Assembly (NCBI GenBank): GCA_963675755.2 | Contig: CAXXMD010000001.1 | Location: forward strand, 127,209 to 191,208 | DNA length: 64,000 nucleotides | Direction of reading: 5' to 3' | From: a bacterium | GTDB taxonomy: Bacteria; Zhuqueibacterota; Zhuqueibacteria; Residuimicrobiales; Krinioviventaceae | In this document: piece after piece, positions 12,552 to 26,686 of the stretch | Numbering within the stretch: the first letter of the stretch is position 1 | Layout: the number at the start of each line of letters is the position of its first letter | Notes under the pieces: generated by a model | Databases searched by the model: none | The model's input: the letters and a program-made list of their open reading frames with translations, nothing else | Told to the model about the DNA's origin: nothing | Position numbers and translations under genes: made by a program

Positions 12552-13727
12552 ATGCGTTTCAATATTTCAATCGTTTTAATATTGGTTTTGTCTCTTATTT
12601 CTTTTTCAAATACCAATCCACTTTATGTAAAAACAGACAAGAGTGACTTTGAAAAGAACCCAGCTTTGCTTGAGCGAATTATAGAATCACCACATGGATA
12701 TTTTCGATTTATTAATATTGAATTCAGCCAATTTATTTGTGATACTTTTAAAGATATTATTGAACAAGCTCCTTCTTTAAATCTGCATGGTGACGCCCAT
12801 CTTGAGCAATATGCGGTAACAGACCTGGGTAGAGGATTAACAGACTTTGATGATTCTTCAACAGGTCCCGGAATAATTGATTTAATGCGCTTTATTGTTT
12901 CTCTTCGACTGACTTGTTACCAACTTGGATGGGAAGAAAATACTGACGAGTTGGTTGACGAATTTATTTTGGGTTATATTAACTCGCTTGATAATCCGGA
13001 TTTATTTCCACAGGAACCGGATATTGCAAAACATATTAGAACTAAATTTAAACACGATAGAGAAGCCTATTTTGATTGGATAGACTCTATAATGCTACCC
13101 ATGCCCGAGTCTGAAAAGGACTCGATTATTGTGGCAATGGGTTTTTATGTTGAAACTTCTTTGATGGAAAATCCCGAGTTGAATAGCGATTTTTATAATG
13201 TAATAGATATGGGATATCTTAAAATGGGTATTGGCAGTGCTCTTGATTTAAAGTATGTTGTTCGTGTTAAAGGAAGTACTGATGATCCTGATGACGATAT
13301 TGTACTTGAAATTAAACAGGTAAGAGATTTAACCGGTATAGATTGTATTCAAACCGGCCAAAAGCAGGATCCATTCAGGATACTTGTTGGACAGTCCCGA
13401 ATCGCTTATCAACCATTTCACCATTTGGGTTATTTTCGTTTCAGAAATATGAATTTTTGGGTGCATTCGTGGGTCGATAACTATAAGGAATTATCTATAG
13501 AAAAAAGTTATACGCATCCTTTCGAGTTGAAGCAGGTAGTTTATGATGTAGGTGTTCAATTGGGTAAAGGACATGTTAAACATATTGCTGCCCCTTTTGA
13601 TCTGCATGTAAGGCTTGAACAAATTAATCTTGTTGCTAAAAACAAAGAGAGAATTTTACGCGAAGGCAAAATTCTCTCTCAAAATGTGATACAAGCCTGG
13701 GAATTATTTAAAAAATCTATAGAGTAA
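12552..13727 (+). CDS. secreted hypothetical protein, tentatively DUF2252-like
   Basis: 391 aa with an N-terminal signal-like segment (ISIVLILVLSLISFS). The motif LHGDAHLEQY..TDFDD resembles the DUF2252 GDxHxxN pattern. Family assignment is tentative. Confidence 0.7.
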   Translation: MRFNISIVLILVLSLISFSNTNPLYVKTDKSDFEKNPALLERIIESPHGYFRFINIEFSQFICDTFKDIIEQAPSLNLHGDAHLEQYAVTDLGRGLTDFDDSSTGPGIIDLMRFIVSLRLTCYQLGWEENTDELVDEFILGYINSLDNPDLFPQEPDIAKHIRTKFKHDREAYFDWIDSIMLPMPESEKDSIIVAMGFYVETSLMENPELNSDFYNVIDMGYLKMGIGSALDLKYVVRVKGSTDDPDDDIVLEIKQVRDLTGIDCIQTGQKQDPFRILVGQSRIAYQPFHHLGYFRFRNMNFWVHSWVDNYKELSIEKSYTHPFELKQVVYDVGVQLGKGHVKHIAAPFDLHVRLEQINLVAKNKERILREGKILSQNVIQAWELFKKSIE

Positions 13728-14805
13728 AATTAACTCCTCGTTTTTCTGCAATTTCATCCAATGTTTTAAATACAGTATCTTGAATGGGTATGCCTTTGCT
13801 CATATATTCATCGTGCTTGTCGTATTCTTTTTCACCATGAATATAGATATGAGGTTCGTCTTTGGCTTTTGCCGAATTGGTAATTCTTTCAATCAGATCG
13901 TCCATATTTGCAGTAAATGTATTATAATCAACAAAACAGTCTACATTAATTGCCATAAAAAAGTGACTGACATTGGCAGGTGCGGGCTTGCCATCTTTGG
14001 GTTTGTTGACCAGGTTTGCATAAGCACCACCCGAGAGCACACCACTTAGCACATCAACCAAAACTGCCATGCCATAGCCTTTATAACCGCTGTACAATTC
14101 ACCAGCACCACCTAAAGGAAGTATTCCGCCACCCAATCTTTGCAATACATTGTTTAAGACTGTACCGGGATCAGTCATAACCAGTCCTTCAGTATCTACA
14201 GCCCAACCTTCAGGCATTTGCTTGTGTTCGCGATTATATACTTCGAGTTTTCCTCTGGGAACAACAGATGTTGCCATATCCAGAACAAAGGGGCGTTTAT
14301 TCTTTGTGGGTACTGCAAAACTGATAGGATTGGTACCAATTACCATCTCTTTTCCAAAAGTTGGAACAACCAGTGGAGCCGAGTTGGTCATTGAAATACC
14401 AATCATGTTTTCTTTGAGGATCATCATGCTGTAATAGCCGGCAATTCCGTAATGGTTCGAGTTTTTTACAGTTACCATACCAATGCATGATGTCTTGGCT
14501 TTTTGAATGGCAAGTTTTGTTGCAAAATAACCGTTGAGTTGCCCTAATCCCGCATTGCCTTCAATTGCGGCAGTTACGGGATTTTCTTTAATGATTTCAG
14601 GCTTTGCTTGTGGAAAGATGGTACCGTTTTCCATTCCGTCAACATATCGTTTCAACCTGGCGACACCGTGCGAAGGTATGCCACGAAGATCAGACATAAC
14701 CAGAATGTCAGCACAAACCCCCGCGTCCTGACTTGACAGATTAAATGTTGAAAAGATGTTTTGAGTGAATTCTTTTAGATCTTCAAATTTAACCGTCGGC
14801 ATCAC
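13717..14805 (-). CDS. Ldh_2-family (type 2 malate/L-lactate/sulfolactate) dehydrogenase
   Basis: 362 aa with LRGIPSHGVARL and NSNHYGIAGYY, typical of the Ldh_2 family. The substrate cannot be set from sequence alone. Confidence 0.82.
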   Translation of the reverse strand: MMPTVKFEDLKEFTQNIFSTFNLSSQDAGVCADILVMSDLRGIPSHGVARLKRYVDGMENGTIFPQAKPEIIKENPVTAAIEGNAGLGQLNGYFATKLAIQKAKTSCIGMVTVKNSNHYGIAGYYSMMILKENMIGISMTNSAPLVVPTFGKEMVIGTNPISFAVPTKNKRPFVLDMATSVVPRGKLEVYNREHKQMPEGWAVDTEGLVMTDPGTVLNNVLQRLGGGILPLGGAGELYSGYKGYGMAVLVDVLSGVLSGGAYANLVNKPKDGKPAPANVSHFFMAINVDCFVDYNTFTANMDDLIERITNSAKAKDEPHIYIHGEKEYDKHDEYMSKGIPIQDTVFKTLDEIAEKRGVNFTL

Positions 14806-14828: not shown

Positions 14829-17531
14829 TTATTTTAACATATCACGCAGAACGGTTTGTAAAATACCTCCCTGACGGTAATATGTGATTTCAACAGGTGT
14901 ATCCAGGCGCAGTGTTACAATGAATGATGTTGTTTTACCGGTTTCGTCTACTGCTTTAACAATAATTTCCTGCATGGGTTGTAAATCGTCTGTCAGTTGA
15001 ATGGAATACTGTTCATAACCTGTAAGGCCCAAAGATTTTGCAGAATCGTTTTCTTTGAACTGTAATGGGAGAACTCCCATTCCTACCAGATTACTTCTAT
15101 GGATACGTTCAAAACTTTCAGCAATAACAGTTTTAACTCCCAGCAACAAGGTTCCTTTGGCAGCCCAGTCTCTTGAACTTCCTGTACCATACTCTTTGCC
15201 TGCCAAGACAACCAGGGGAGTGTTTTCTTTTTTGTACATTTCTGCGGCATCATAGATCCACATTTGCGTCTTATCCGGCAAGTGTAATGTTACGCCACCT
15301 TCAGTTCCCGGTGCAAGGAGATTCTTTAAGCGAATGTTGCCAAATGTACCCCGTACCATGATTCTATCATTTCCGCGTCTGGAACCATAAGAGTTGAAAT
15401 CTTTTGGTTCAATTCCCATTGATTTAAGGTATGTGGCAGCCGGACTGTCTTCAGGAATAGCCCCTGCCGGAGAAATGTGGTCTGTTGTTACGGAATCACC
15501 CAATAACGCGAGAACGCGTGCATTGTTGATTGAAGCAATCGGCTCGGGGTTGGGTTGCATATCAATGAAAAAGGGTGGTTCTTGAATATAACTGGAATCT
15601 GCCTGCCATTGATATAATGCTGAGGAGGTAACTGGAATATCGTTCCATTGCGGACTGTATGAATTGACATCTGCATACATCTTTTTGAATACCTCTGCGT
15701 CAGCAGCTTTTGCTACATATGAAAGGATTTCTTTTTGTGTTGGCCAAATGTCTTTGAGATATACGGATTCACCAGAAGATGTTTTACCCAGTGGTTCGTT
15801 TTCAAGATCTACGTCAACTGTGCCGGCAATAGCATATGCAACAACCAACGGAGGAGATGCAAGATAATTTGCTTTCGTATAGGGATTGACCCTGCCTTCA
15901 AAATTACGGTTACCACTTAGAACTGAAGCTGCAACAAGGTCTTGTTCTTTTATAGCAGCTGAAACTGCTTCCGGTAATGGACCGCTATTACCAATACAGG
16001 TTGCACAGCCATATCCTACCGTATGAAAACCAAGCTTTTCGAGATATTCTGTTAGTCCTGCTTTATCCAAATAGTCTGTAACTACTCTTGAACCAGGAGC
16101 CAGGCTGGTTTTAACATAACCCGGTACTTTTAATCCTTTTTCTACTGCTTTTTTTGCCAAAAGGCCAGCACCCAGCATGACTGATGGATTACTGGTATTG
16201 GTACAACTGGTTATGGATGCAATTACTACCGAACCGTGTTTTAACTCATAACCACCATTTATATCAAGTGATGCTTTTCGTGTAAGATCTTTGTCTTCAA
16301 GACTAAATCCACGTTTTTCAGCGGGAGCTGTTAAAATATCTTGAAATGATTTTTTCATATCGGAAAGGTTGATACGATCCTGAGGGCGTTTGGGACCGGC
16401 AAGACTGGGAACAACATCGCCCAAATCCAATTCTATAGTATCTGAGAATTCAGGATCAGGTGTTTGGTCAGTACGGAACAAGCCTTGTTCTTTAGTATAG
16501 CGTTCTACCAGGTCTACTAGATCATCAGAACGTCCTGTACGACGTAAAAAGTTGAGGCTTTCGTTATCCATTGGGAAAAATCCCATGGTTGCACCATACT
16601 CTGGTGCCATATTGGCAATTGTTGCCCGGTCTGGTAAACTCATGCTGCCTACACCCGGACCATAAAATTCTACAAATTTACCGACAACGCCTTTTTGTCT
16701 CAACATTTCTACTACTTTGAGTGCGATATCCGTTGCGGTTGCACCTTGTGGTACTGCACCGGATAGTTTAAAACCAACGACTTGTGGTGCAAGCATATAA
16801 AGAGGTTGACCCAGCATAACCGCTTCTGCTTCAATTCCACCAACACCCCAGCCTACAATACCCAGACCGTTGATCATGGTTGTATGTGAATCGGTTCCTA
16901 CCAGACTGTCCGGATAAACCAGTGTATCACCACCGGATTTGTCTGTAAAAACTCCTCTGGCAAAGTATTCCAGGTTTACCTGGTGGATAATACCCACACC
17001 TGGAGGGACAACACCAAATTTTTTGAATGCCTGTTGACCCCACTTGAGGAATTCGTAACGTTCGTGGTTACGTTTAAATTCTATATCCATATTAAATACG
17101 AGTGAACGTGCTTCGCCAAAACTGTCTATCTGCACAGAATGGTCAATAACCAGATCGCAGGGAATAAGGGGTTCGATTTTTTGGGGATCTCCGCCCAATC
17201 GCTGCATTGCAGAACGCATTGCTGCAAGATCTACCAGAGAGGGGACACCGGTAAAATCCTGTAGAATAACTCTGGCTGGTTTAAAGGGTACTTCTTTTGA
17301 TGATGGGCTGGATGCCTGCCATTGTGCCAGGTTGAGAACATCCTGCTCGTTTATTATGAAATTATCGCAATTGCGTAAGACGGATTCCAGTAATATTTTA
17401 ATACTGAAAGGAAGTTTGGAAACTGCAAGACCACTTTTGCTTTCCAATGCTTGTAACGCGTACATGTACGCGGTGCCCCCGGCTGTTTTAATGGGAGATT
17501 TTGCGTCAAAAGAGTTTTGTTTTAAAGACAT
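14829..17531 (-). CDS. acnA: aconitate hydratase A (AcnA/IRP type)
   Basis: 900 aa with [32 protein letters not shown] and [16 protein letters not shown] motifs. Confidence 0.96.
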
Positions 17532-17547
17532 GTTTAATCTTTCATGT

Positions 17548-18216
17548 TTAAGATTCTAACCAATAAACTGTTAATTTTCGCGGGCCATGTGCGCCCAAAA
17601 TTAATATTTTTTCTATATCTGCTGTACGGCTGGGACCCGTAATAAAAAGCATATTTTTTTTCTTTTCATCCGGGATAATTTCCATAAGTTCGAACATATT
17701 GGCAACAAGCTGATCTGGCTTTACGACCACATAGATGCTGTCCGGTAAATAGTGGGGAAACAAGCTGGGAATGTTGTCAAGCAATACTACCAGCGATGCA
17801 ACATCTGCTATGGCATAATCCACACTTACCAACGATGCTTGCGTATTTGCCAGTGTCGCTTTTCTATCCTGTTCAGGAATGTCAACAGTGTTTAGACATT
17901 GAATATCTGATAGATTTGACATTTGTGAAAAAATGCTATCTGTGCCCATAAATGCGATTGAACTGTTGTTTCCTGCAAGCATGTCTCTATAAAGATGCTC
18001 TACCAGAATTTTTTCACTGGAAACGGTTACAAGCTCTCCTGAAACTGCCTGCAATTCTTTTTCAAACTGTTCTTTAAAGCCTTTATCATCCAGAGGTGTA
18101 ATGGATGTTAATTTGGATTCAATTTCTTTTTCAACATAATCCGGTTTTTCCGGTAAATGGGATGAGGTCTTTACTGCCTTTTTAATGGCATTCAAGATTT
18201 TCTCTCTACTTGGCAT
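17548..18216 (-). CDS. lutC: lactate utilization protein C (LUD/YkgG domain)
   Basis: 222-aa LUD-domain-like protein directly downstream of lutA-lutB. Confidence 0.75.
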
Positions 18217-18316: not shown

Positions 18317-19714
18317 TTATTTATTTTTTTTCATTTCTAAAAAGCGTTTTCTGAATCCTTTTTTATCAAATTTACCCAAAGCTCTTTCTCCGGTATATCC
18401 GGGAGCCGGAAACGACTGTCCTTTGGGTAATAGCATTTGAAATTTTCCCGGGAACCAGGTGGCAAATCTATAAAGTTTGGGATGTCTGGCAAGAAATGCC
18501 CAAATGTCCATGCCTATTTTTTCAATTTTCATCGAATATCCCTTTTCCACAACATTGTTTCGCAATTTTAGCAGATGGTGAGGGATATTGATTCTAACCG
18601 GACAGATTTCGTAACATGCTCCACATAAACTGGACAAGTAGGGAGAGTATTTGCCTTCTTTTTCACCGAGATATTGGGGAATCAAAGTAATACCTATGGG
18701 GCCCATATATACCCAACCGTAAGCGTGACCGCCTATTTGTTGATAAATGGGACATACGTTCAGGCATGCACCACATCGAATACAGAAAAGTGTCTCACGA
18801 AGTTCGGGATCAGCGAGCATTTTGGAACGGCCATTGTCCAAGAGAACAATATGCATCTCTTCAGGACCTTCTTTTAATTTTTGAAAAGCAGGTCCGCCAA
18901 CAATATTCACATAAACAGATGCTTTTTGACCTGTTGCGCTTGGACCCAATAGTTTAAGGAATACAGCCAGATCATCCATGTTAGGAATAATCTTTTCAAT
19001 TCCCATAACCGCAATATGTGTTTTGGGAACTCCTACAGTTAGACGGGCATTTGCTTCATTTTCAACGACAACAACCGACCCACTCTCGGCAACTGCAAAG
19101 TTGACACCTGAAATGCCGATATCTGCATTGAGAAATTTCTCTCTTAGGGTGTTTCTGGCTATAGTGAGTAACTCGTTAGGATCTTCAGTGTAATCGATAC
19201 CTAATTTTTCATGAAAAACTTTGCCAATATCCTGACGGTTAAGGTGTAATGCCGGTGCCGTAAGGTGAGAGGGAATTTGTCCCAACAACTGCACAATATA
19301 TTCACCCAAGTCAGTTTCAAGCGTCTCAAGATCATTTTCGATGAGAAAATCATTAAGGTGTAATTCTTCTGTGGTAAGTGATTTTGATTTTACAATGGTC
19401 TTGGCGTGTTTTTCATGAGCAATGTTTAATATAATCTGTCTTGCTTCTTTGGCATTTGCAGCCCAATGTACATGGATTCCATTGGATACACAATTTTTTT
19501 CAAATGTTTCCAGATAGGTATCCAGATGTTCCATAACATCACGTTTAATTGAATGAGCTTTGTAGCGTAATTCTTCCCAATAGGGGATTTGTTCTTTTTT
19601 ATCGTTACGTTTTGCCAACGATGTCTGTGTTGCTTTATCTACAGATGCTCTTAATCGACTGTCTAGCAATGCTTCTTTGACATATGTTTTGGTTTTTGTA
19701 GGAGAAAGATTCAT
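18317..19714 (-). CDS. lutB: lactate utilization iron-sulfur protein LutB
   Basis: 465 aa with a LUD/DUF162-type N-terminal half and two ferredoxin-type clusters (CIRCGACLNVCP, CGACYEICP). Confidence 0.88.
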   Translation of the reverse strand: MNLSPTKTKTYVKEALLDSRLRASVDKATQTSLAKRNDKKEQIPYWEELRYKAHSIKRDVMEHLDTYLETFEKNCVSNGIHVHWAANAKEARQIILNIAHEKHAKTIVKSKSLTTEELHLNDFLIENDLETLETDLGEYIVQLLGQIPSHLTAPALHLNRQDIGKVFHEKLGIDYTEDPNELLTIARNTLREKFLNADIGISGVNFAVAESGSVVVVENEANARLTVGVPKTHIAVMGIEKIIPNMDDLAVFLKLLGPSATGQKASVYVNIVGGPAFQKLKEGPEEMHIVLLDNGRSKMLADPELRETLFCIRCGACLNVCPIYQQIGGHAYGWVYMGPIGITLIPQYLGEKEGKYSPYLSSLCGACYEICPVRINIPHHLLKLRNNVVEKGYSMKIEKIGMDIWAFLARHPKLYRFATWFPGKFQMLLPKGQSFPAPGYTGERALGKFDKKGFRKRFLEMKKNK

Positions 19715-19727
19715 AATAAACCTGCTG

Positions 19728-20453
19728 TTATAAATTCATGCTCTGGGCTAAAATATCTGCAATGTGTATGGCTCTGGCTTTCATATTGTGTTTACGAAGG
19801 TAGCCATCAATATTCATTAAACAACTTGAATCAGTACTGGTAACATAATCTGCACCGCTTTCATCTATGTATTTGCACTTTCTTGCTACCATGGAAATAG
19901 ACATATCTGCATATTTATACGAAAAGGTGCCCCCAAATCCACAACAGGTATCTGATTTTTCCATTTCAATGAAATCAATTCCTTTGATAGATTTTAATAA
20001 CTTGCGGGGTTGTTCCTTGATGCCCAATTCACGAAGAGCATGACAAGAATCGTGATAGGTTACTTTGTGGCTGAATGTGCCATCAACCTTATCCATATTT
20101 ACAACTTTGATTAGAAATTCAGTAAATTCAAAGATTTTACTGCTCAGCTCGTCTCTTGCTGAATGCAATTCCGGATTAATATCAAGTTCATTATAAAATT
20201 TCCTTACCATAGTCACACAGGAACCGGATGGGGAGACAACATATTCTTTGCCCTGAAAGAGTTTAATGAATCTTTCAGCGACAGGTACAACTTGTTTACG
20301 ATATCCGGAATTAAAAGCGGGTTGTCCGCAGCAGGTTTGGTCGTTTACATATTCTATTTCAGCGCCAATGTGCTCAAGAACTTTGACCATAGAAATAGCC
20401 GATTCCGGGTATAAATGTTCGGATAAACATGGAATAAAAAGGGCGACTTTCAT
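19728..20453 (-). CDS. lutA: lactate utilization protein LutA (CCG-domain Fe-S oxidoreductase)
   Basis: Two cysteine-rich CCG motifs (TCCGQPAFNSG, TCCGFGGTFS). Start set at MKVALFIPC (ATG 20453). The upstream 55 codons of the tracked ORF look non-coding. Confidence 0.85.
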   Translation of the reverse strand: MKVALFIPCLSEHLYPESAISMVKVLEHIGAEIEYVNDQTCCGQPAFNSGYRKQVVPVAERFIKLFQGKEYVVSPSGSCVTMVRKFYNELDINPELHSARDELSSKIFEFTEFLIKVVNMDKVDGTFSHKVTYHDSCHALRELGIKEQPRKLLKSIKGIDFIEMEKSDTCCGFGGTFSYKYADMSISMVARKCKYIDESGADYVTSTDSSCLMNIDGYLRKHNMKARAIHIADILAQSMNL

Positions 20454-20692
20454 CAGAATTCTCACTTTAAGTCTTGTAATTGTAATGGTTAAGAACTTGG
20501 TAGAAAAGAACCTATAATTTAAAATAATTAATTTTCCCTGAAAATCAATTAAATAATGTAAATTTGTTTCCAGTTGTATGATTTTGATGTGTACTACAAG
20601 CAGGTTGAGATAAATCAACTCATACGCAACCCAGGGGAAATATGAGCCCCGGTATATATTATATATAATGGCTATTAATTATTTTTTTAATT

Positions 20693-20742: not shown

Positions 20743-21939
20743 TCAAGCAGTTAATTGTTTGTATTTTTCATCAAGGTCGGGCAGCTGAACCGTTTCCAGA
20801 ATATAATCACAGAATTCTCGTCCGGTTACACCATTGTCACGACCGGTTATGATCATTTTTTTCTCGAATTGCTGGCAAATTTCAAGCGCCTTGCCAAGTT
20901 GATCAGCTTTTTCAATATATCCGATATGTTCAAGCATCATTGCAGCAGCGCGGATCAGACTGGAAGGATCTGCATATTTTCCGCGTCCTTCTTTGATCAT
21001 ACGAGGAGCTGAACCATGAATTGCTTCAAACATTGCATATCGTTTGCCAATATTGGCACTTCCTGCGGTACCAACACCACCCTGGAATTCAGCAGCTTCG
21101 TCAGTTAAAATATCACCATAGAGGTTGGGGAGAACCATGACCTTGAATTGAGTACGACGTTTGGGATCTACCAATTTGGCTGTCATAATATCAATATACC
21201 AACCTTCCCATTTAACATCAGGATAATCTTTAGCAACACGCTCTGCAGTTTCAAGGAAAAGACCGTCTGTTGTTTTTACTACATTTGCTTTGGTTACAAC
21301 GGTAACGTCATTCAGGCCTGTTTTATGTGCATAATCAAACGCCATGCGAATGATACGCTCTGCACCTTGTTTGGTGATAACTTTAAAATCCATAGCCAGA
21401 TCTTCTGTAACCATTAAACCTTTACTACCAAGAACATAGGCACCTTCAGTGTTTTCGCGAAAGAAAGTCCAGTTCAGACCTTCTTTGGGAACTTTGACCG
21501 GGCGAACATTAGCGAACAGATCCAGTTCGCGGCGCATAGCAACATTAGCGCTTTCAATATTGGGGTAGGGGCCACCTTTTTCCGGAGTTGTAGTTGGCGC
21601 TTTAAGAATAACGTGACAAGCTTTGAGTTCTTCCAGAACATCATCCGGAATTGCTTTCATGTGTTCAACACGATTTTCAATGGTCAAACCTTCAATGGGT
21701 GTAAATTCAAGTTTGCCTTTGGCAATTTCATCCTTGAGTAGAATTTCTAAAAGGCGTTGGGTTTCCTGAGAAATGATAGGGCCTATACCATCTCCCCAGC
21801 AAAAACCGATTTTAATTGGAGATAATTTACTATAATCAATCCAGTCTTCAGCTTGTTTCATCTTTTCTATGCGTTCAAGCTGTTCCGCAATCAGTGATCC
21901 TAGATGTTCTTTTGCTTTTTCAATTGCTTTTTCACTCAT
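20743..21939 (-). CDS. icd: isocitrate dehydrogenase-like beta-decarboxylating dehydrogenase (isocitrate/isopropylmalate DH family)
   Basis: 398 aa with FRENTEGAY and NLYGDILTDEAAEFQGGVGTAGSANIG. Context with aconitase and a citrate-synthase-type gene favours isocitrate as substrate. Confidence 0.78.
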   Translation of the reverse strand: MSEKAIEKAKEHLGSLIAEQLERIEKMKQAEDWIDYSKLSPIKIGFCWGDGIGPIISQETQRLLEILLKDEIAKGKLEFTPIEGLTIENRVEHMKAIPDDVLEELKACHVILKAPTTTPEKGGPYPNIESANVAMRRELDLFANVRPVKVPKEGLNWTFFRENTEGAYVLGSKGLMVTEDLAMDFKVITKQGAERIIRMAFDYAHKTGLNDVTVVTKANVVKTTDGLFLETAERVAKDYPDVKWEGWYIDIMTAKLVDPKRRTQFKVMVLPNLYGDILTDEAAEFQGGVGTAGSANIGKRYAMFEAIHGSAPRMIKEGRGKYADPSSLIRAAAMMLEHIGYIEKADQLGKALEICQQFEKKMIITGRDNGVTGREFCDYILETVQLPDLDEKYKQLTA

Positions 21940-21971: not shown

Positions 21972-22484
21972 TTAATAAACATTTTGGTCATCGGAAAAAT
22001 CTTTGCGATCTTTTTTATATATGTAAAAACGCTCTTTTAAGGTATTTAATTCATTTTGAATATCCAAAGTTTTAGAAACATAATATTTGGCAAAGTTGTC
22101 TCTTGCGACAGCAAATGCCCGATTACATTCCGTTAATAATTCCACCAGTTCTTCAGATAAAGGATAGCAAGTGGTAAGCATACTCCAGAATTCATTCTCA
22201 AATATACGGATAGCTTTTTGAACTTCTTCCAAAGTATAGCCTTCGTTTGAGCGTTTGTTAGCAAGATTTTCCATATATTGAATTAGTGGTTTGTCATCAC
22301 AATCGGCAATTACCTTGAGCATAATATCAAGAAATTCTTCTTCACGTTCCTGATGGCGTTCAAAGTCAATAATCTCATAATGTGATTCTGACATTTTTTG
22401 CAGTTTATTACAAATATTGTTAATCAGATCATCACGATGTTCTTTGATGACACGTTTGAGATTACTGTTTGTGCAGTGTGTCAT
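21972..22484 (-). CDS. hypothetical acidic protein of predicted helical character (170 aa), weakly reminiscent of RsbR-N-type non-haem globin sensor domains
   Basis: ATG 22484 is preceded by AGGAG 11 nt upstream and lies inside the 3' end of the upstream gene (23-nt overlap). I recognise no catalytic motif. Confidence 0.7.
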   Translation of the reverse strand: MTHCTNSNLKRVIKEHRDDLINNICNKLQKMSESHYEIIDFERHQEREEEFLDIMLKVIADCDDKPLIQYMENLANKRSNEGYTLEEVQKAIRIFENEFWSMLTTCYPLSEELVELLTECNRAFAVARDNFAKYYVSKTLDIQNELNTLKERFYIYKKDRKDFSDDQNVY

Positions 22485-24354
22485 GCTTTTTGATTCTCCT
22501 GTTTCTCCGTTTCAGTTGCTCTTCAATTCTGCCAATGATACGCTGCGAATATTTACTATAATCTTTACCCATGCTTTCAGACTCTTTATCCAATCCTTTT
22601 TCTATTGTAGTTATAAAGTCTTCTATGCTTTTTGCGGAAACGGGTTTGGGCTGGTCTGCCCATTTAAATAGCATCGCTTCTATGGGTTCAAAATAGTCTG
22701 GTTTTGGTAACGTGTTGCAAGATTTAAAGGGATATGGATTTAATTCTTGCTGGAATCCCTTTAAGGCCATGATTAATGGTTGATAATCATATTCATAAAA
22801 CAATCTTGAAAATTGGTATTCAATAACGGGAGTCCACTTGTTATCATCTGGTACCGTATGATGTTTGTTTAGCCGTGAAAAATTGAGCCCTGTTTCTTCG
22901 TGATCAATTTCCCGTTGGTGAATACGCATTTCCCTTAATATTCCATTACTGTCTTCACGCAAATCTCCTCCGAGCAAAAGAAGACAAAGGAAAAAGTCCG
23001 GATTATCAATTTCTCTAAATTCTTGATTTGGAGGTAACTGTATACTGAGATGCAGACTGTGCGGCTTGATGTCCAAATATCTTACCGCTAAATCAATCAA
23101 TTGGGACAGTACCCAGGGATCCTGAGTTGCCGGTTTGGATACATCCCCCAGTAATTTATACCTGCCAAATGCCAATTCAAGAAAACCACGGGTTCTGACA
23201 TTTGATGAAGTCAGGAAGCCATGGTCATCAACATGTGCGCCAAGTTTCCACCCTCTGCGCATAATGTCAAATTTATAGAAATAATAAAACGAGTCATAAA
23301 GCGGATCTTCGCCTTCTTTAGAGTTTACCGCTCTATAGCCAATATTGGAAAATTCCAGTTCTGCTCCCAAGGGCAGGTAGCCAATGTGACGATTCTTTTT
23401 GAGCCATTTTACAATCTCATCTGCCTTGACGGGGTCATACAATTCTTCTGCAATGATAATTGCGGCAGCAGCATAATCAGTATATAAAATTTCAGGGTTA
23501 TACCTATCTACTTCCAGATGAGAAATAGCACTGGATAAGTGTTGTTTTTGATTGACCAGCAGTTTAAGCGCCATTGTAGCAGAAAGGGTATGGATATAAA
23601 ATTCATCTGCTACATTTACCTGGCCCCTGTAATCATTCCTGAATTTTTCTTCAAGTTGATTAAAGATCATGAAATTGAGTGCAAGCTTCATGTAATTGTC
23701 TGCATACTTTACCGCTTTTCTATCGGTTTTTAACCAATTCAAGCGGGGTATGCTTGCTTTTTCAATTTCATGTTTGATAATAAATGCAGGGATACCGGTA
23801 TCTTGAAAATATTGGCGTAATATGCTATGAACTTCTTCTGAAAGCAACTCTCTTGTTACTTTGAGTGGAAGAGATTCACGATCATAATTGAGCAGCATAT
23901 CCGCTTTTTGTTCTACATAGCGGTTAACATTGCTTTCAACAAATTCTTCAATACGGTCTCGTTCCTGGAATCCTTTATTGATATAGGGTTTTATGGACCT
24001 GGGCTTGCCAATATAAACGAAAGAATCAATCACTTTATCGTTCACTTGAATCTGTGCCACTTTGCGTTTATATAAACTGCCTTCAGCTTCGTAAGCATCA
24101 AGTTTCTCAAGTATATCAGGTGTTACATTGTACAAAACTCTGCCTTCAATGCTGTACCCCTTCCAGGGAAGAGCAAAGGTAAAGCTGTTTTCCGGTTGAA
24201 CCCGACGGTGATTGAGTAGTAAACCTTTTTCACTCAACAGTTTTGTGCCTGTCAGCAATTCCAGATAATAATCATTATTCAGAGAACCATAAACAAATAC
24301 TTTGTCTATGGTTTCCCAATCGATCTTTGCTGTTTTCTTTTCTTTTGGACTCAC
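22462..24354 (-). CDS. uncharacterised 630-aa fusion protein: N-terminal gamma-glutamyl cyclotransferase (GGCT/AIG2-like) domain plus a large unknown region with possible GS-fold amidoligase motifs
   Basis: GTG start in a GTGA overlap with the upstream stop. Residues ~17-120 read VFVYGSL..GYSIEGRVL..LDAYEAEGSLYKRKV (GGCT pattern). Residues ~326-440 carry LGAELEF, GAHVDDHG..GFLELAF and SLHLS. Confidence 0.85.
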   Translation of the reverse strand: MSPKEKKTAKIDWETIDKVFVYGSLNNDYYLELLTGTKLLSEKGLLLNHRRVQPENSFTFALPWKGYSIEGRVLYNVTPDILEKLDAYEAEGSLYKRKVAQIQVNDKVIDSFVYIGKPRSIKPYINKGFQERDRIEEFVESNVNRYVEQKADMLLNYDRESLPLKVTRELLSEEVHSILRQYFQDTGIPAFIIKHEIEKASIPRLNWLKTDRKAVKYADNYMKLALNFMIFNQLEEKFRNDYRGQVNVADEFYIHTLSATMALKLLVNQKQHLSSAISHLEVDRYNPEILYTDYAAAAIIIAEELYDPVKADEIVKWLKKNRHIGYLPLGAELEFSNIGYRAVNSKEGEDPLYDSFYYFYKFDIMRRGWKLGAHVDDHGFLTSSNVRTRGFLELAFGRYKLLGDVSKPATQDPWVLSQLIDLAVRYLDIKPHSLHLSIQLPPNQEFREIDNPDFFLCLLLLGGDLREDSNGILREMRIHQREIDHEETGLNFSRLNKHHTVPDDNKWTPVIEYQFSRLFYEYDYQPLIMALKGFQQELNPYPFKSCNTLPKPDYFEPIEAMLFKWADQPKPVSAKSIEDFITTIEKGLDKESESMGKDYSKYSQRIIGRIEEQLKRRNRRIKKHDTLHKQ

Positions 24355-25718
24355 TCTACCTTGTCTGCGAAATAGAGTTCAAACTGCTTCATCATTTCTT
24401 CAGGTGAAATTGAAGTCACCCTACCGTTTTCGTATTGTTCTTCAACCCATTCAAATATTTTTGCAACCTGTGGATTTCTCTTGTCAACTGGCGGTAACCC
24501 ACGTTTTTTTAGTTCCCGGTTAACCCAAAAACCCACACCTGCAATTCCTGAACGATTGGTAAGATTTACACCAATAGGACGGTTTAATACTTTATCCGTA
24601 TCAAAAATATTATAAATTTCTTCATTTTTAATCACACCGTCTGCGTGAATTCCTGCCATTGTTACATTAAAGCGTTCACCTACAAAGGGATAGTTGTTAG
24701 GAATTACTGTACCAATTTCTTTGAGGTATTCTGCAATTTCAGTGATCGCAGTAAGATCCATGCCATTGGTGCTTCCCGTAAGTGATGCATACTCTACAGC
24801 CAGCGCTTCTACAGGAGAGTTGCCGGTCCTCTCACCAAATCCAAGAATTGTGCCATTTACACCTGATACACCGGACAACCAGGCCGTAACAGAGTTTGCA
24901 TGAACTTTGTGAAAATCATTGTGGCCATGCCATTCAAGGTTTTCCGAAGTGATGCCAACTTCACGTTGCAGGAAATATGCAATTTTCCGAATGGAACGTG
25001 GAAGCGCAACACCGGGATAAGGGAGGCCATAACCCATAGTATCACATAACCGGATTTTAATTTTTAATCCTGATTTTGCTGAAAAATTCATCAATTCTTC
25101 TGCAAAAGGTACAACCGTACCCCAAAAATCGGCACGGGTAATATCTTCAAAATGGCATCTGATAGCTTCCAAACCGGCATCAGCGGCAGCCTGAACAACA
25201 CCCATAAACGCATCAAGGACCTGGCGACGCGTTTTTTTAAATTTCATAAAAATGTGATAATCTGATATTGATGTCAGCATACCGGTTTCTTTTATGCCTA
25301 CACTTTTAACGAGTTCAAAATCAGCAGGATTTGCGCGGATCCAGGATGTTACCTGTGGAAATTCCAGGCCTTTATTACGCACCTCTTCAAGAATTTCTCT
25401 ATCCATTTCTGAATAGATAAAAAACTCGGATTGCCGTATAACACCGTTTGGCCCGGAAAGTTTGCTTATAAGGTCAAATAGTTTAGATACCTGTTCGGGT
25501 GTATAGGGGGGACGCGCCTGTTGTCCATCTCTAAAAGTTGTATCCGTAATCCAGATATCTTTTGCAGGTTTGGCGTCTACAATTTCACCGTCAAATACGG
25601 TTTTGGGAATCTCGGAATAGGGAAATATATCACGCATCAAATTTGGTTCTTCAACATCGATCAATGGATGTTTTTTTTGTTTTGATAAAATTCTCCAGTC
25701 AGAATTCACTTCAGCCAT
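24351..25718 (-). CDS. HMGL-family acyl-CoA:2-oxoacid condensing enzyme (homocitrate synthase family); Re-citrate synthase proposed from context
   Basis: 455 aa with ITDTTFRDGQQ, WHGHNDFHKVHANSVTA and GFGERTGNSP metal/substrate motifs. No LeuA-type regulatory C-terminal domain. Same operon as IDH and same array as aconitase. AAGGAGGG RBS. Confidence 0.85.
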   Translation of the reverse strand: MAEVNSDWRILSKQKKHPLIDVEEPNLMRDIFPYSEIPKTVFDGEIVDAKPAKDIWITDTTFRDGQQARPPYTPEQVSKLFDLISKLSGPNGVIRQSEFFIYSEMDREILEEVRNKGLEFPQVTSWIRANPADFELVKSVGIKETGMLTSISDYHIFMKFKKTRRQVLDAFMGVVQAAADAGLEAIRCHFEDITRADFWGTVVPFAEELMNFSAKSGLKIKIRLCDTMGYGLPYPGVALPRSIRKIAYFLQREVGITSENLEWHGHNDFHKVHANSVTAWLSGVSGVNGTILGFGERTGNSPVEALAVEYASLTGSTNGMDLTAITEIAEYLKEIGTVIPNNYPFVGERFNVTMAGIHADGVIKNEEIYNIFDTDKVLNRPIGVNLTNRSGIAGVGFWVNRELKKRGLPPVDKRNPQVAKIFEWVEEQYENGRVTSISPEEMMKQFELYFADKVE

Positions 25719-25831: not shown

Positions 25832-26505
25832 TTACGGTTCTTGAACTTCGGTCAGATATTGTAATGCATCAATAATTTTGCTATTATTGGGGCTGAGTTC
25901 GAGACCATGTTTGTATGCGTTAATCGCTTCAGGAATACGTCTAAGACGGTAATAGACGTTTCCAAGATGATAGTATACACGAGAATCTTCACTACCAATC
26001 TTTAATAACTCTTCAAGATGTTCCAAAGCGCAGTGGTAGCATTGTTCTTCAATGCAGGATAGTGCTGCATGATAATGTGCCATGGGAGAATCTGCTTTTT
26101 TCTCAAGCAATGTTTCAAAAGCCTTGCGAGCTTTGTGATATTTGCCAAGATGCCAGTATGTCATGCCCAACCAGTAATATGCCATCAGCATTTCAGGTGC
26201 CAATTCAATTACTTTTTTTAGAGCATTTTTGGCATCCCATAACTTTAATTGGCGATAATGAGATACACCCAGATAGTAATATGCATAAGGGAGTTCGGGA
26301 TTTACTTTTATGGCTTTTTCAAAGACCTCAATAGCAGATGAAATCTTGCCACGCAAATAGTAACCATTTCCCAGCATTAATAAAGATCTTATGTCTTGTT
26401 CGTCAGCTTTGACTGTTTGCTCAAGCTGTTTCATCAATTCATCTAACTGAGATGAATCCATCATGTCCATAGATTCTGGCAGATTAATATCAGATGAAGT
26501 CATAT
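25832..26505 (-). CDS. tetratricopeptide-repeat (TPR) protein
   Basis: Repeated TPR-like A/Y/G pattern (YYYLGVSHY, AYYWLGMTYWHLGKY, YYHLGNVYYRL). Start set at ATG 26505 (MTSSD), with GGGAG 8 nt upstream. Confidence 0.85.
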
Positions 26506-26686
26506 CGAATACTCCCATATATCTTAACAATCCACTGCATAATATAATAATGTGTTTCTGAATTAATGTCAAGTACTATTTGTATTGAAAACAAAATCGA
26601 TAGTTTTATATTGATTTTTAACAGTCAAATGAATACATTTATTGCCAATATTGTTTATATTTTCTTAAAAATTTACAGGATTATTT

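Follow-up and report, generated by a model that had tools for sequence, protein, structure and literature searches.

We analysed a 64,000-nucleotide stretch of bacterial DNA (contig CAXXMD010000001.1, forward-strand positions 127,209 to 191,208; hereafter the window), in which a 630-residue protein, ORF630, is encoded between genes for a citrate-synthase-like enzyme and an isocitrate dehydrogenase (IDH)-like enzyme. The N-terminal domain of ORF630 is, as judged from its sequence and predicted structure, very likely an active gamma-glutamyl cyclotransferase (GGCT), and the long core that follows it is probably ligase-like, with the fold of glutamine synthetase (GS). Overall, we propose with middling confidence that ORF630 is a fused ligase and cyclotransferase for a gamma-glutamyl-type compound. 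ORF630 and its immediate neighbours are as follows.

22462-24354, minus strand: ORF630, GTG start, 630 residues; GGCT domain, helical region, ligase-like domain and C-terminal helices
21972-22484, minus strand: ORF170, ATG start, 170 residues, a small acidic protein
24351-25718, minus strand: HMGL-family synthase (Re-citrate-synthase-like), whose stop codon overlaps the ORF630 start
20743-21939, minus strand: gene of the isocitrate/isopropylmalate dehydrogenase family (IDH-like), 32 nt after ORF170

At E<=1e-3, 470 homologues of ORF630 were retrieved, of which almost all measure 600-655 residues and hence are full length. ORF170 has 16; where these come from long contigs, the contigs agree in length with ones that encode a fusion homologue. 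Chance reading frames can be ruled out, as both families are deeply conserved.

The N-terminal domain of ORF630

Four segments can be distinguished in ORF630, the helical region being delimited by DSSP on an AlphaFold2 (AF2) model and the beta-rich domain by invariant columns, motif mapping and a fold match.

24001-24300, minus strand: GGACT/AIG2-like gamma-glutamyl cyclotransferase domain (residues 19-118), with YGSL at 22-25 and the presumptive catalytic Glu E89
23392-24000, minus strand: all-helical region (residues 119-321)
22696-23391, minus strand: beta-rich, catalytic-looking domain (residues 322-553)
22465-22695, minus strand: C-terminal helical extension (residues 554-630), with invariant W565, P569, G587 and E591

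An initial annotation of this DNA, made by inspection of the sequence, had placed a GGCT fold at the N-terminus of ORF630, and profile and structure comparisons bear this out. The Pfam GGACT model (PF06094) gives residues 19-118 a score of 54.5 bits (cut-off 22.8), and it also matches all 45 aligned relatives. When searched against the PDB, the family profile recovered the AIG2-like structures 2g0q (1.7e-14) and 2jqv (about 1e-14), GGACT (1vkb and 3jub) and YtfP (1xhs). The AF2 model of ORF630 (pLDDT 88.8, pTM 0.89) matched AIG2-like 2g0q and 2jqv, human GGCT (2i5t/2rbh/3cry) and ChaC2 with a Foldseek probability of 1.0. The Y22-G-S-L25 motif is present. Glu occupies the position of E89 in 45/45 sequences, and the alignment pairs it with the Glu in the LDDFE segment of mouse GGACT (1vkb); by our own count of the numbering, we take this mouse residue to be the catalytic Glu82. 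The N-terminal domain is also related to gp22 of phage LUZ24 (29% identity, E 2e-5). Since the Pfam match, the profile, the fold and the invariant E89 all point in the same direction, it is very likely that this domain is an active cyclotransferase.

The core of ORF630 defines a family missed by current models

The remaining ~500 residues, which the initial annotation could not recognise as a whole, proved equally refractory to database searches. Scans of ORF630, its 45 relatives and 9-10 remote relatives against Pfam, NCBIfam, PHROGs and PADLOC returned nothing beyond GGACT, phmmer and profile searches of PDB sequences with ORF630 gave GGCT-fold matches only, and the core itself (residues ~130-630) thus matches nothing in any of these collections. 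A core-only profile searched against 1.84 billion representative proteins yielded 144 matches, all of them inside the family; they comprise fusions, pieces of fusions and standalone proteins. The ten remote relatives comprise nine standalone cores and a fragment, P0170. The nine standalone relatives examined are full-length proteins of 420-490 residues that lack the GGACT domain; they keep every conserved core motif, and none matches Pfam. They also have in common with ORF630 the C-terminal part of the helical region (from residue ~216-222, as aligned from position 89-95 of the profile). The confinement of the search to the family, together with the existence of standalone forms, indicates that the core is an autonomous, small and isolated family, and it defines a ligase-like family missed by the current Pfam, NCBIfam and PHROGs models.

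Conservation is concentrated in the beta-rich domain, which carries G330-A-E332-L-E334, D376/H378, E393, H432/H435/S437, C457, G462-G463-D464, R474-E475-x-R477, R494/N496, E512 and R517. The invariant polar residues cluster on its strands (E332, E334, D376, H378, E393, H432, H435, D464, E475, R477, N496, E512 and R517), giving the domain its catalytic appearance.

As a separate observation, phrog_23382, a 67-residue phage family, gave weak matches in 8/16 core sequences (best E 0.0017) that cover the DP-YD-FYYF-DFD loop between strands 1 and 2, at residues 350-384 of ORF630 (~23203-23307). A role in an anti-phage defence system was considered and rejected, on the absence of a PADLOC match and on the housekeeping context.

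Comparison of the core with GS-fold ligases

The initial annotation had likened a series of motifs in the core to those of GS-fold amidoligases of the GCS2 or Amidoligase_2 type. The motifs that it listed lie in ORF630 where it put them, namely VFVYGSL at residues 19-25 and LDAYEAEGSLYKRKV at 85-99 in the cyclotransferase domain, and LGAELEF at 329-335, WKLGAHVDDHG at 369-379, GFLELAF at 390-396 and SLHLS at 433-437 in the beta-rich domain; in its observations it erred only over the distance from DDHG to GFLELAF, giving 12 residues where there are 10. The features that define the carboxylate-amine ligase superfamily, both strand motifs and helices, are set out in PMC2588565. As a basis for comparison, a set of Amidoligase_2 sequences was assembled starting from gp18 of phage LUZ24, a documented PF12224 protein (PMC3890496).

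The strand-1 motif, GhExE, is fitted exactly by G330-A-E332-L-E334 on the predicted strand 329-335; the G and both E residues do not vary among the fusions, and 9/9 standalone relatives have the motif. Strands 2 and 3 are acidic, with D376 (strand 373-376) and E393 (strand 391-396) both invariant. On strand 4, where the superfamily pattern is [HD]x[NH], H435 is invariant and is followed at +2 by Ser in 42/45 fusions, Thr in 2/45 and Asn in 1/45; the canonical H-x-N occurs in 7/9 standalone relatives. With regard to the arginines of the loop and strand 5, R477 does not vary and R474 is shared by 43/45 sequences, both in a loop or short strand, whilst R494 (39/45) is found in F-S-R-L-N on strand 493-499, which is assigned to strand 5 by order only. 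The last strand has an invariant E512, with Q, T, E or L (K once) at +2 and an invariant Arg (R517) at +5, and no Asp. Helices 413-427, after strand 3, and 525-537, after the last strand, sit where the superfamily requires them, and the number and order of strands along the chain, taken from the secondary structure of the AF2 model, would be compatible with the six-strand saddle sheet of the superfamily, whose strands are arranged in space as 231465.

A fold comparison hinted at the same superfamily. In BFVD, a library of predicted viral structures, the top match of the domain model was gp_13868 of the crAss-like phage cr118_1 (Foldseek probability 0.91, E 1.6e-3, 255 columns), a protein of 266 residues encoded at 63389-64189 of MT774379.1 (17390-18190 on the minus strand of our locus L100). 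It displays the motifs GLEFE, YDGN, CEN, HIH, N and IEYR, and a three-sequence profile of its family aligned with Amidoligase_2 in hhalign at 87.5% (E 3.6e-6, 164 columns), spanning all the motifs; on the evidence of this profile, gp_13868 is a relative of Amidoligase_2. Because the nearest structural neighbour of the core is an Amidoligase_2 relative and the motifs are colinear, we regard a GS-fold, ligase-like assignment of the core as probable on sequence and model together.

Two points about these phage proteins may be recorded in passing. In its database record gp_13868 is called a 'hypothetical protein' and is not annotated as a divergent member of the Amidoligase_2 superfamily, and its homologues in cr125_1 and cr114_1 (loci L101 and L102) have an extra N-terminal region of ~150 residues. 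The rank-3 BFVD match, a 208-residue protein of Aeromonas phage LAh_8, is not the LAh_8 amidoligase homologue, which has 446 residues.

A number of results weigh against the ligase assignment. The profile search of 1.84 billion proteins provided no bridge from the core to any named family. Neither PF12224 nor GCS2 was matched in Pfam by any of the 45 fusions and 10 remote relatives. The core was aligned by hhalign with LUZ24 gp18 alone and with Amidoligase_2 alignments of 26 and 55 sequences, and also with the standalone relatives added; none of these comparisons was significant, and P against Amidoligase_2 was 0.14-0.16. The local matches and a forced alignment were colinear, pairing GxExE, the strand-3 Glu, the His strand, the Arg and the last-strand Glu. 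Alignment with the gp_13868 crAss family was likewise not significant (P 0.25-0.29). Foldseek searches of the PDB with full-length and domain-only models found no solved GS-fold structure. The highest TM-score match of the core was the guanido-kinase McsB (TMq 0.30, probability 0.07), which is not meaningful alone; we take McsB to be of the same fold class as GS. The BFVD match itself has a TM-score of 0.31 and was obtained with a domain model of pLDDT 72. In addition, the second residue of the strand-4 motif is Ser in the fusions, and the strand-6 pattern Ex[RK]x2D (E-x-R in Amidoligase_2) is absent, ORF630 having Q at +2 and R at +5. Formal membership of the superfamily is denied by the lack of significant sequence similarity and by one divergent motif. 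Of the initial comparison, then, most of the published motifs stand and the best fold match is to a phage Amidoligase_2 relative, while Pfam, HMMER, hhalign and the solved structures give no significant match and the strand-6 motif is missing.

These negative results raise the alternative that the core has a new alpha/beta fold with a metal-binding, regulatory or scaffolding function, in which the catalytic-looking residues are convergent and the GGCT domain is the sole catalytic domain of known type. Every direct statistical test against ligase families fails, as this reading would have it, and in the PDB the domain model finds generic duplicated alpha/beta sandwiches only (tandem KH, Cas6, T-fold, AdoMetDC), in addition to which the TM-score of the BFVD match is low. 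However, five motif positions are colinear and fall on the right secondary-structure elements, the best neighbour among viral models turned out to be an Amidoligase_2 relative that was not known as such beforehand, and the partnership with GGCT is the same as that of known amidoligases. On balance we consider a non-GS core unlikely.

The deviations in strands 4 and 6 bear on a different possibility, in which the core is GS-like but acts as an amidase or deamidase, so that ORF630 would trim and then cyclise gamma-glutamyl or peptide compounds. There is precedent in PafA and Dop, which have the same fold and motifs and catalyse opposite reactions (PMC7947786). The replacement of Asn/His by Ser on strand 4 and the lack of Arg/Lys at +2 on strand 6 are in keeping with such a change, and two degradative activities in one chain would escape the futile cycle that a ligase and a cyclotransferase invite. 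Nevertheless, the residues associated with ATP/Mg2+ (GhExE, both acidic strands and both arginines) are counted as invariant, the standalone relatives keep the canonical H-x-N, and the gene neighbourhoods show no sign of peptide catabolism. This makes an amidase decidedly unlikely in our estimation.

Standalone cores adjoin separate GGACT genes

The association of the two domains extends beyond the fusion. Of the four loci in which the flanks of a standalone core could be read, three have a separate GGACT gene adjoining it: the core is followed by a GGACT gene with an 8-nt overlap in L093, it is convergent with the gene for a methyltransferase-GGACT protein in L092, and it is convergent with a GGACT gene in L095/L096. 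Downstream of the core in L094, the available sequence contains a 74-residue ORF and the first part of an alpha/beta-hydrolase-like gene, and the contig of L103 ends ~180 nt past the core, with no downstream gene visible. The initial annotation had mentioned a link between GS-like amidoligases and AIG2/GGCT genes; this is indeed documented, and the fused and split pattern seen here mirrors the published amidoligase-Aig2 gene neighbourhoods (PMC2588565). Co-occurrence in fused and split arrangements in different lineages constitutes strong evidence, at the level of gene organization, that the core and the GGCT domain would act in a common pathway.

Between the GGACT genes that adjoin standalone cores and the N-terminal domain of ORF630, similarity is limited to the motifs of the family, and on this ground these genes were rejected as its orthologues. 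A 141-residue ORF that follows the split pair in L093 was likewise rejected as a relative of ORF170, to which it is unrelated. In L095 (1005-8413), the standalone core has an acetyl-CoA synthetase gene 3 nt upstream on the same strand and is downstream of acetate-permease-like genes (DUF4212 and SSF), with the convergent GGACT gene downstream and an amidohydrolase gene adjoining; this context is unrelated to the tricarboxylic acid (TCA) cycle branch encountered in the window.

A proposed activity for ORF630

In the scheme that we favour, the core would be a very divergent GS-fold carboxylate-amine ligase, closest to the Amidoligase_2 type, that activates a carboxylate with the aid of ATP/Mg2+ and condenses it with an amine to form an amide. 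The GGCT partner and the genomic contexts suggest that this carboxylate is probably the gamma-carboxylate of glutamate. The GGCT domain would later free the amine by cyclising the gamma-glutamyl group to 5-oxoproline, so that both domains may serve one substrate or pathway, with a 'tag on, tag off' logic or that of a gamma-glutamyl cycle. In the window and in related lineages of the FCB group, ORF630 would be co-transcribed, and probably translationally coupled, with the genes for the synthase, IDH and aconitase, a branch that would supply 2-oxoglutarate and glutamate; ORF170 would be a small partner confined to certain lineages and may act as a sensor or regulator. One objection concerns the fusion itself. 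If both activities of the chain were directed at one and the same bond, the outcome would be a futile cycle in the absence of an intervening step; a fused make-and-break pair makes sense if such a step exists, as in protecting-group logic, or if the two reactions form part of a cycle.

Conservation and genomic context of the fusion

The fusion is a single-copy chromosomal gene and was identified in no fewer than 80 genomes at species level, which represent more than 10 phyla, including KSB1, KSB3, Zixibacteria, Coatesbacteria, Auribacterota, Omnitrophota, Poribacteria, Lentisphaerota, Kiritimatiellota, Planctomycetota and others. We surveyed 80 species-representative loci by tblastn and by clustering of neighbouring ORFs; 71 loci had enough flanking sequence for the synthase to be counted, and the counts for ORF170 refer to 73. 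An HMGL synthase gene is directly upstream of the fusion on the same strand in 33/71 loci, in which the identity of the fusion falls to as little as 37%, and an IDH or aconitase gene lies within 5 kb downstream in 25 of 28 HMGL-type loci. The linkage to the synthase and to the genes leading from citrate to 2-oxoglutarate, noticed first in the window, thus holds over deep divergence. Overlaps of 4 nt and 11 nt between synthase and fusion occur in individual other loci. In addition, a homologous TPR gene (~245 residues) is part of the cluster in 19 loci; in those of KSB1 type it precedes the synthase, in those of Zixibacteria type it follows ORF170, and its product may be a further partner of the module. 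Weighing on the other side, TCA and glutamate genes are missing from the vicinity of the fusion in about half of the loci.

The synthase of the window matches Pfam HMGL-like at 103.7 bits without a LeuA_dimer match, and falls below every NCBIfam equivalog cut-off, the best being nifV (139.8 bits, cut-off 462.9); it is thereby set apart from the nifV, leuA and cimA equivalogs. Re-citrate synthases, which have only ~28% identity in common, are divergent relatives of homocitrate synthases and are frequently misannotated (PMC12016533). We use 'Re-citrate synthase' as a contextual label, which is supported by the aconitase and IDH genes in the operon. The IDH-like gene product matches Pfam Iso_dh at 224.7 bits, and its best NCBIfam models are those of NADP-IDH, below cut-off. 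In JAXHMJ010000003.1, a KSB1 metagenome-assembled genome (MAG; L006, 12391-13586), the IDH-like gene that follows the ORF170 homologue was called in two ORFs, of 111 and 287 residues, which may be due to a frameshift or an assembly error.

Other lineages show other neighbours. In Lentisphaerota/Victivallales (PVC group), LysM-YkuD and AccA genes are found upstream, with AccA within 1 kb in 15 loci. In seven loci of this group an ArgA-like GNAT gene is directly upstream (NF005840, 153.6 bits, cut-off 154), and in eight the glutamate racemase gene murI is directly downstream, with a median spacing of -10 nt; the identity of the racemase is secured by TIGR00067 (209 bits, cut-off 146.65). The fusion is also carried by a MAG labelled Victivallis vadensis, which is a cultured species. 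In Auribacterota/Omnitrophota the order is PPDK, sigma-70, phosphoribosyltransferase, fusion and HDOD protein. Two themes recur in these contexts. One is the supply and use of glutamate, to which the racemase and the ArgA-like GNAT provide a second pointer. The other is acetyl-CoA enzymes, comprising the synthase, AccA, GNAT, the acetyl-CoA synthetase of L095 and a Pta-like protein in L005. The gene for the latter, in L005 (6673-7770) and in L033, encodes an AAA_26 and DRTGG protein resembling the N-terminal domains of Pta and is directly upstream of the fusion; in this lineage it is preceded by genes for a two-subunit aconitase-family enzyme and fumarase.

The glutamate theme could be read in terms of 5-oxoproline salvage, with the GGCT-fold domain binding 5-oxoproline and an ATP-using core opening the ring to glutamate, as an alternative to PxpABC/OPLAH. 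GGCT-fold domains bind 5-oxoproline as their product, the contexts are those of glutamate supply (citrate synthase, aconitase, IDH) or use (MurI, ArgA-like GNAT), and the family is housekeeping-like, with one copy in phylogenetically wide-ranging MAGs. Yet we know of no GGCT-fold enzyme that runs in reverse, and the reading is purely inferential; we consider salvage highly improbable.

The acetyl-CoA theme suggests instead a writer and eraser of gamma-glutamylation on protein lysines or polyamines that would regulate the adjacent Re-citrate synthase, AccA or acetyl-CoA synthetase. In keeping with this, the substrate of GGACT is epsilon-(gamma-glutamyl)-lysine, PafA uses the GS fold to ligate the gamma-carboxylate of Glu to protein lysines, and many of the neighbours use or make acetyl-CoA (HMGL synthase, AccA, GNAT, acetyl-CoA synthetase and the Pta-N-like protein). 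On the other hand, neither a Pup-like small protein nor evidence of a target accompanies the fusion, and the acetyl-CoA theme may simply reflect the clustering of genes for central metabolism, so that a regulatory role of this kind appears highly unlikely. In a fuller form, which we put forward as a speculation and think very unlikely, ORF630 would be a fused gamma-glutamylation writer/eraser that acts on an amine or on protein lysine and, across many uncultured anaerobic phyla, would serve as a control or accessory step where acetyl-CoA enters the 2-oxoglutarate/glutamate branch; ORF170 would be its globin-like sensor. The fused ligase and cyclotransferase proposed above, acting on a gamma-glutamyl-type compound, is the reading that we retain.

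ORF170 is a lineage-restricted partner

ORF170 belongs to a family with 60% mean column identity and an invariant N-terminal motif, ICN-LQK...SHYE...E-HQEREE-F. Members are directly downstream of the fusion in 24/73 loci, among them 20 of 32 HMGL-type loci, including those of Zixibacteria and Coatesbacteria. The family occurs almost only beside the fusion, mostly with the synthase present, and is absent from ~40% of HMGL-type loci. By this distribution ORF170 is a dedicated small partner in the synthase-linked set of lineages.

The initial description of ORF170 as acidic and only weakly reminiscent of the RsbR N-terminal domain was accurate. Its pI is 5.03, with 33 D+E against 24 K+R, and its Pfam scores are all below threshold (Rsbr_N 24.5 against 27, RsbRD_N 17.6 against 24.3, HisK-N-like 17.3 against 27.8). 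Weak matches recur among the 17 family members (RsbRD_N in six, Rsbr_N in four, HisK-N-like in four), with a protoglobin model matched as well; ORF170 found no match in the PDB. The non-haem globin sensor domains at the N-terminus of RsbR resemble ORF170 in size and all-alpha character, as well as through these repeated weak matches, but ORF170 lacks a STAS domain and stressosome partners, stands alone and has an invariant motif of its own. The suggestion that it is a sensor thus draws on sub-threshold matches and is tempered by the lack of any match above cut-off and by the HMGL-type loci that do without it; a role as sensor or regulator is a guess.

Relation to known ligase and cyclotransferase systems

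A GS-fold amidoligase paired with an AIG2/GGCT enzyme is a known kind of system, predicted in 2008 by the comparative genomics of Iyer, Burroughs and Aravind (PMC2588565). The pairing of Amidoligase_2 (PF12224) with AIG2/GGCT, as in LUZ24 gp18 and gp22, is the same domain partnership as that of ORF630, and the two cores are colinear in GhExE, the acidic strands 2 and 3, H-x-[N/H/S], Arg, N and the final-strand Glu. They differ in that the domains of ORF630 are fused and that its core is undetectable as PF12224, is without the last-strand E-x-R and has additional helices that account for ~190 residues ahead of the catalytic domain and ~75 behind it. Moreover, ORF630 is chromosomal and housekeeping-like, in an operon with citrate synthase and IDH, whereas the Amidoligase_2 pairs are found in phage or in secondary-metabolite clusters.

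Pathways that attach and later remove a gamma-glutamyl group offer a functional comparison. In butirosin biosynthesis the ligase BtrJ and the GGCT-type cyclotransferase BtrG handle a gamma-glutamyl protecting group, BtrG forming 5-oxoproline, and PuuA, a GS-like gamma-glutamylputrescine synthetase, is paired with PuuD. As proposed for ORF630, these systems use ATP-dependent gamma-glutamyl attachment followed by removal by a second enzyme, and they illustrate how a ligase and a cyclotransferase can share a pathway without futility. Unlike ORF630, they consist of separate proteins in catabolic or antibiotic clusters; BtrJ has an ATP-grasp fold, and no carrier protein or amine-modifying enzyme is conserved beside ORF630. 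Glutamate-cysteine ligase (GCS1/GCS2, with the GS fold) together with GGCT/ChaC also makes and breaks a gamma-glutamyl amide and, like ORF630, is tied to glutamate supply. ORF630, however, has no significant similarity to GCS1/GCS2, its neighbourhoods contain neither glutathione synthetase nor transpeptidase, and its hosts are mostly anaerobes of phyla without established use of glutathione.

PafA and Dop are likewise divergent GS-fold enzymes with GhExE that are invisible to simple searches and were found by motifs (PMC2588565). In these respects they resemble the core of ORF630, and they illustrate that the fold is able to support either ligation or hydrolysis, but there are no Pup or proteasome genes beside ORF630 and no sequence or fold match of its core to the structures of PafA or Dop.

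In the literature that we searched, no amidoligase-AIG2/GGCT pair has an assigned substrate or role. What is new here is a divergent ligase-like family, its fusion to GGCT and its spread over uncultured phyla, together with the tight coupling to genes for a Re-type citrate synthase, IDH and aconitase and with a dedicated small partner. In about half of the genomes the fusion is tightly coupled to a Re-type citrate synthase that would feed glutamate synthesis in anaerobes. The oxidative TCA-branch operon in these organisms also gains a conserved component that had gone unrecognised. The family provides an expressible target and a metabolic hypothesis, involving glutamate, 5-oxoproline and gamma-glutamyl amides, for this domain pair. 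Were the writer/eraser interpretation true, it would give the first physiological role for the amidoligase-AIG2 pairs predicted in 2008.

Organization of the locus in the window

The locus is ~97% identical to a 6.5-Mb MAG chromosome, OY843751.1, and its closest named relatives belong to candidate division KSB1. The genes form a single string on the minus strand, in the order TPR, HMGL synthase, ORF630, ORF170, IDH, LutA, LutB, LutC, aconitase and Ldh_2 dehydrogenase. In addition to the genes given above, the string and its flanks comprise the following features, the last two of which come from a consensus scan only.

25832-26572, minus strand: TPR protein gene, upstream of the synthase
19728-20618, minus strand: LutA, in the same-strand gene string
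18317-19714, minus strand: LutB, in the same string
17548-18216, minus strand: LutC, in the same string
14829-17531, minus strand: aconitase, in the same string
13717-14805, minus strand: Ldh_2-type malate/lactate dehydrogenase, last gene of the string
13645-13680, minus strand: terminator-like hairpin with a 15-bp stem and a T run
26544-26572, minus strand: sigma-70-like promoter match, TTGACA-17-TATTAT, 11/12

The coordinates and strand of the synthase, ORF630, ORF170 and the IDH-like gene are those of the initial annotation, and each of the junctions that it described was found in the sequence. A GTGA overlap joins the GTG of ORF630 (24354-24352) to the TGA of the synthase (24353-24351). 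The 3' end of ORF630 and ORF170 have 23 nt in common, and an AGGAG (22500-22496) ends 11 nt before the ATG of ORF170 (22484). Between the stop codon of ORF170 and the ATG of the IDH-like gene there are 32 nt, with an AGGAG inside the gap.

The consensus scan of the window found no terminator-like site inside these junctions, which is not proof of its absence; this result and the overlapping or closely spaced junctions are in favour of the proposed operon. The hairpin at 13645-13680 is the only strong one on the minus strand and lies just past the last gene of the string. The best sigma-70-like match on this strand lies in the 5'-terminal part of the called TPR ORF, and the counts of such sites are not above those in shuffled sequence.

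LutA, LutB and LutC are of the type of the lactate-utilisation Fe-S oxidoreductase. The order in which they stand between IDH and aconitase, followed by Ldh_2, recurs in four KSB1 loci (L012, L021, L027 and L032). As called in the window, the LutA ORF has a TTG start and a low-complexity leader of 55 residues; its true start is probably an internal Met before 'MKVALFIPC', which would widen the gap after the IDH gene.

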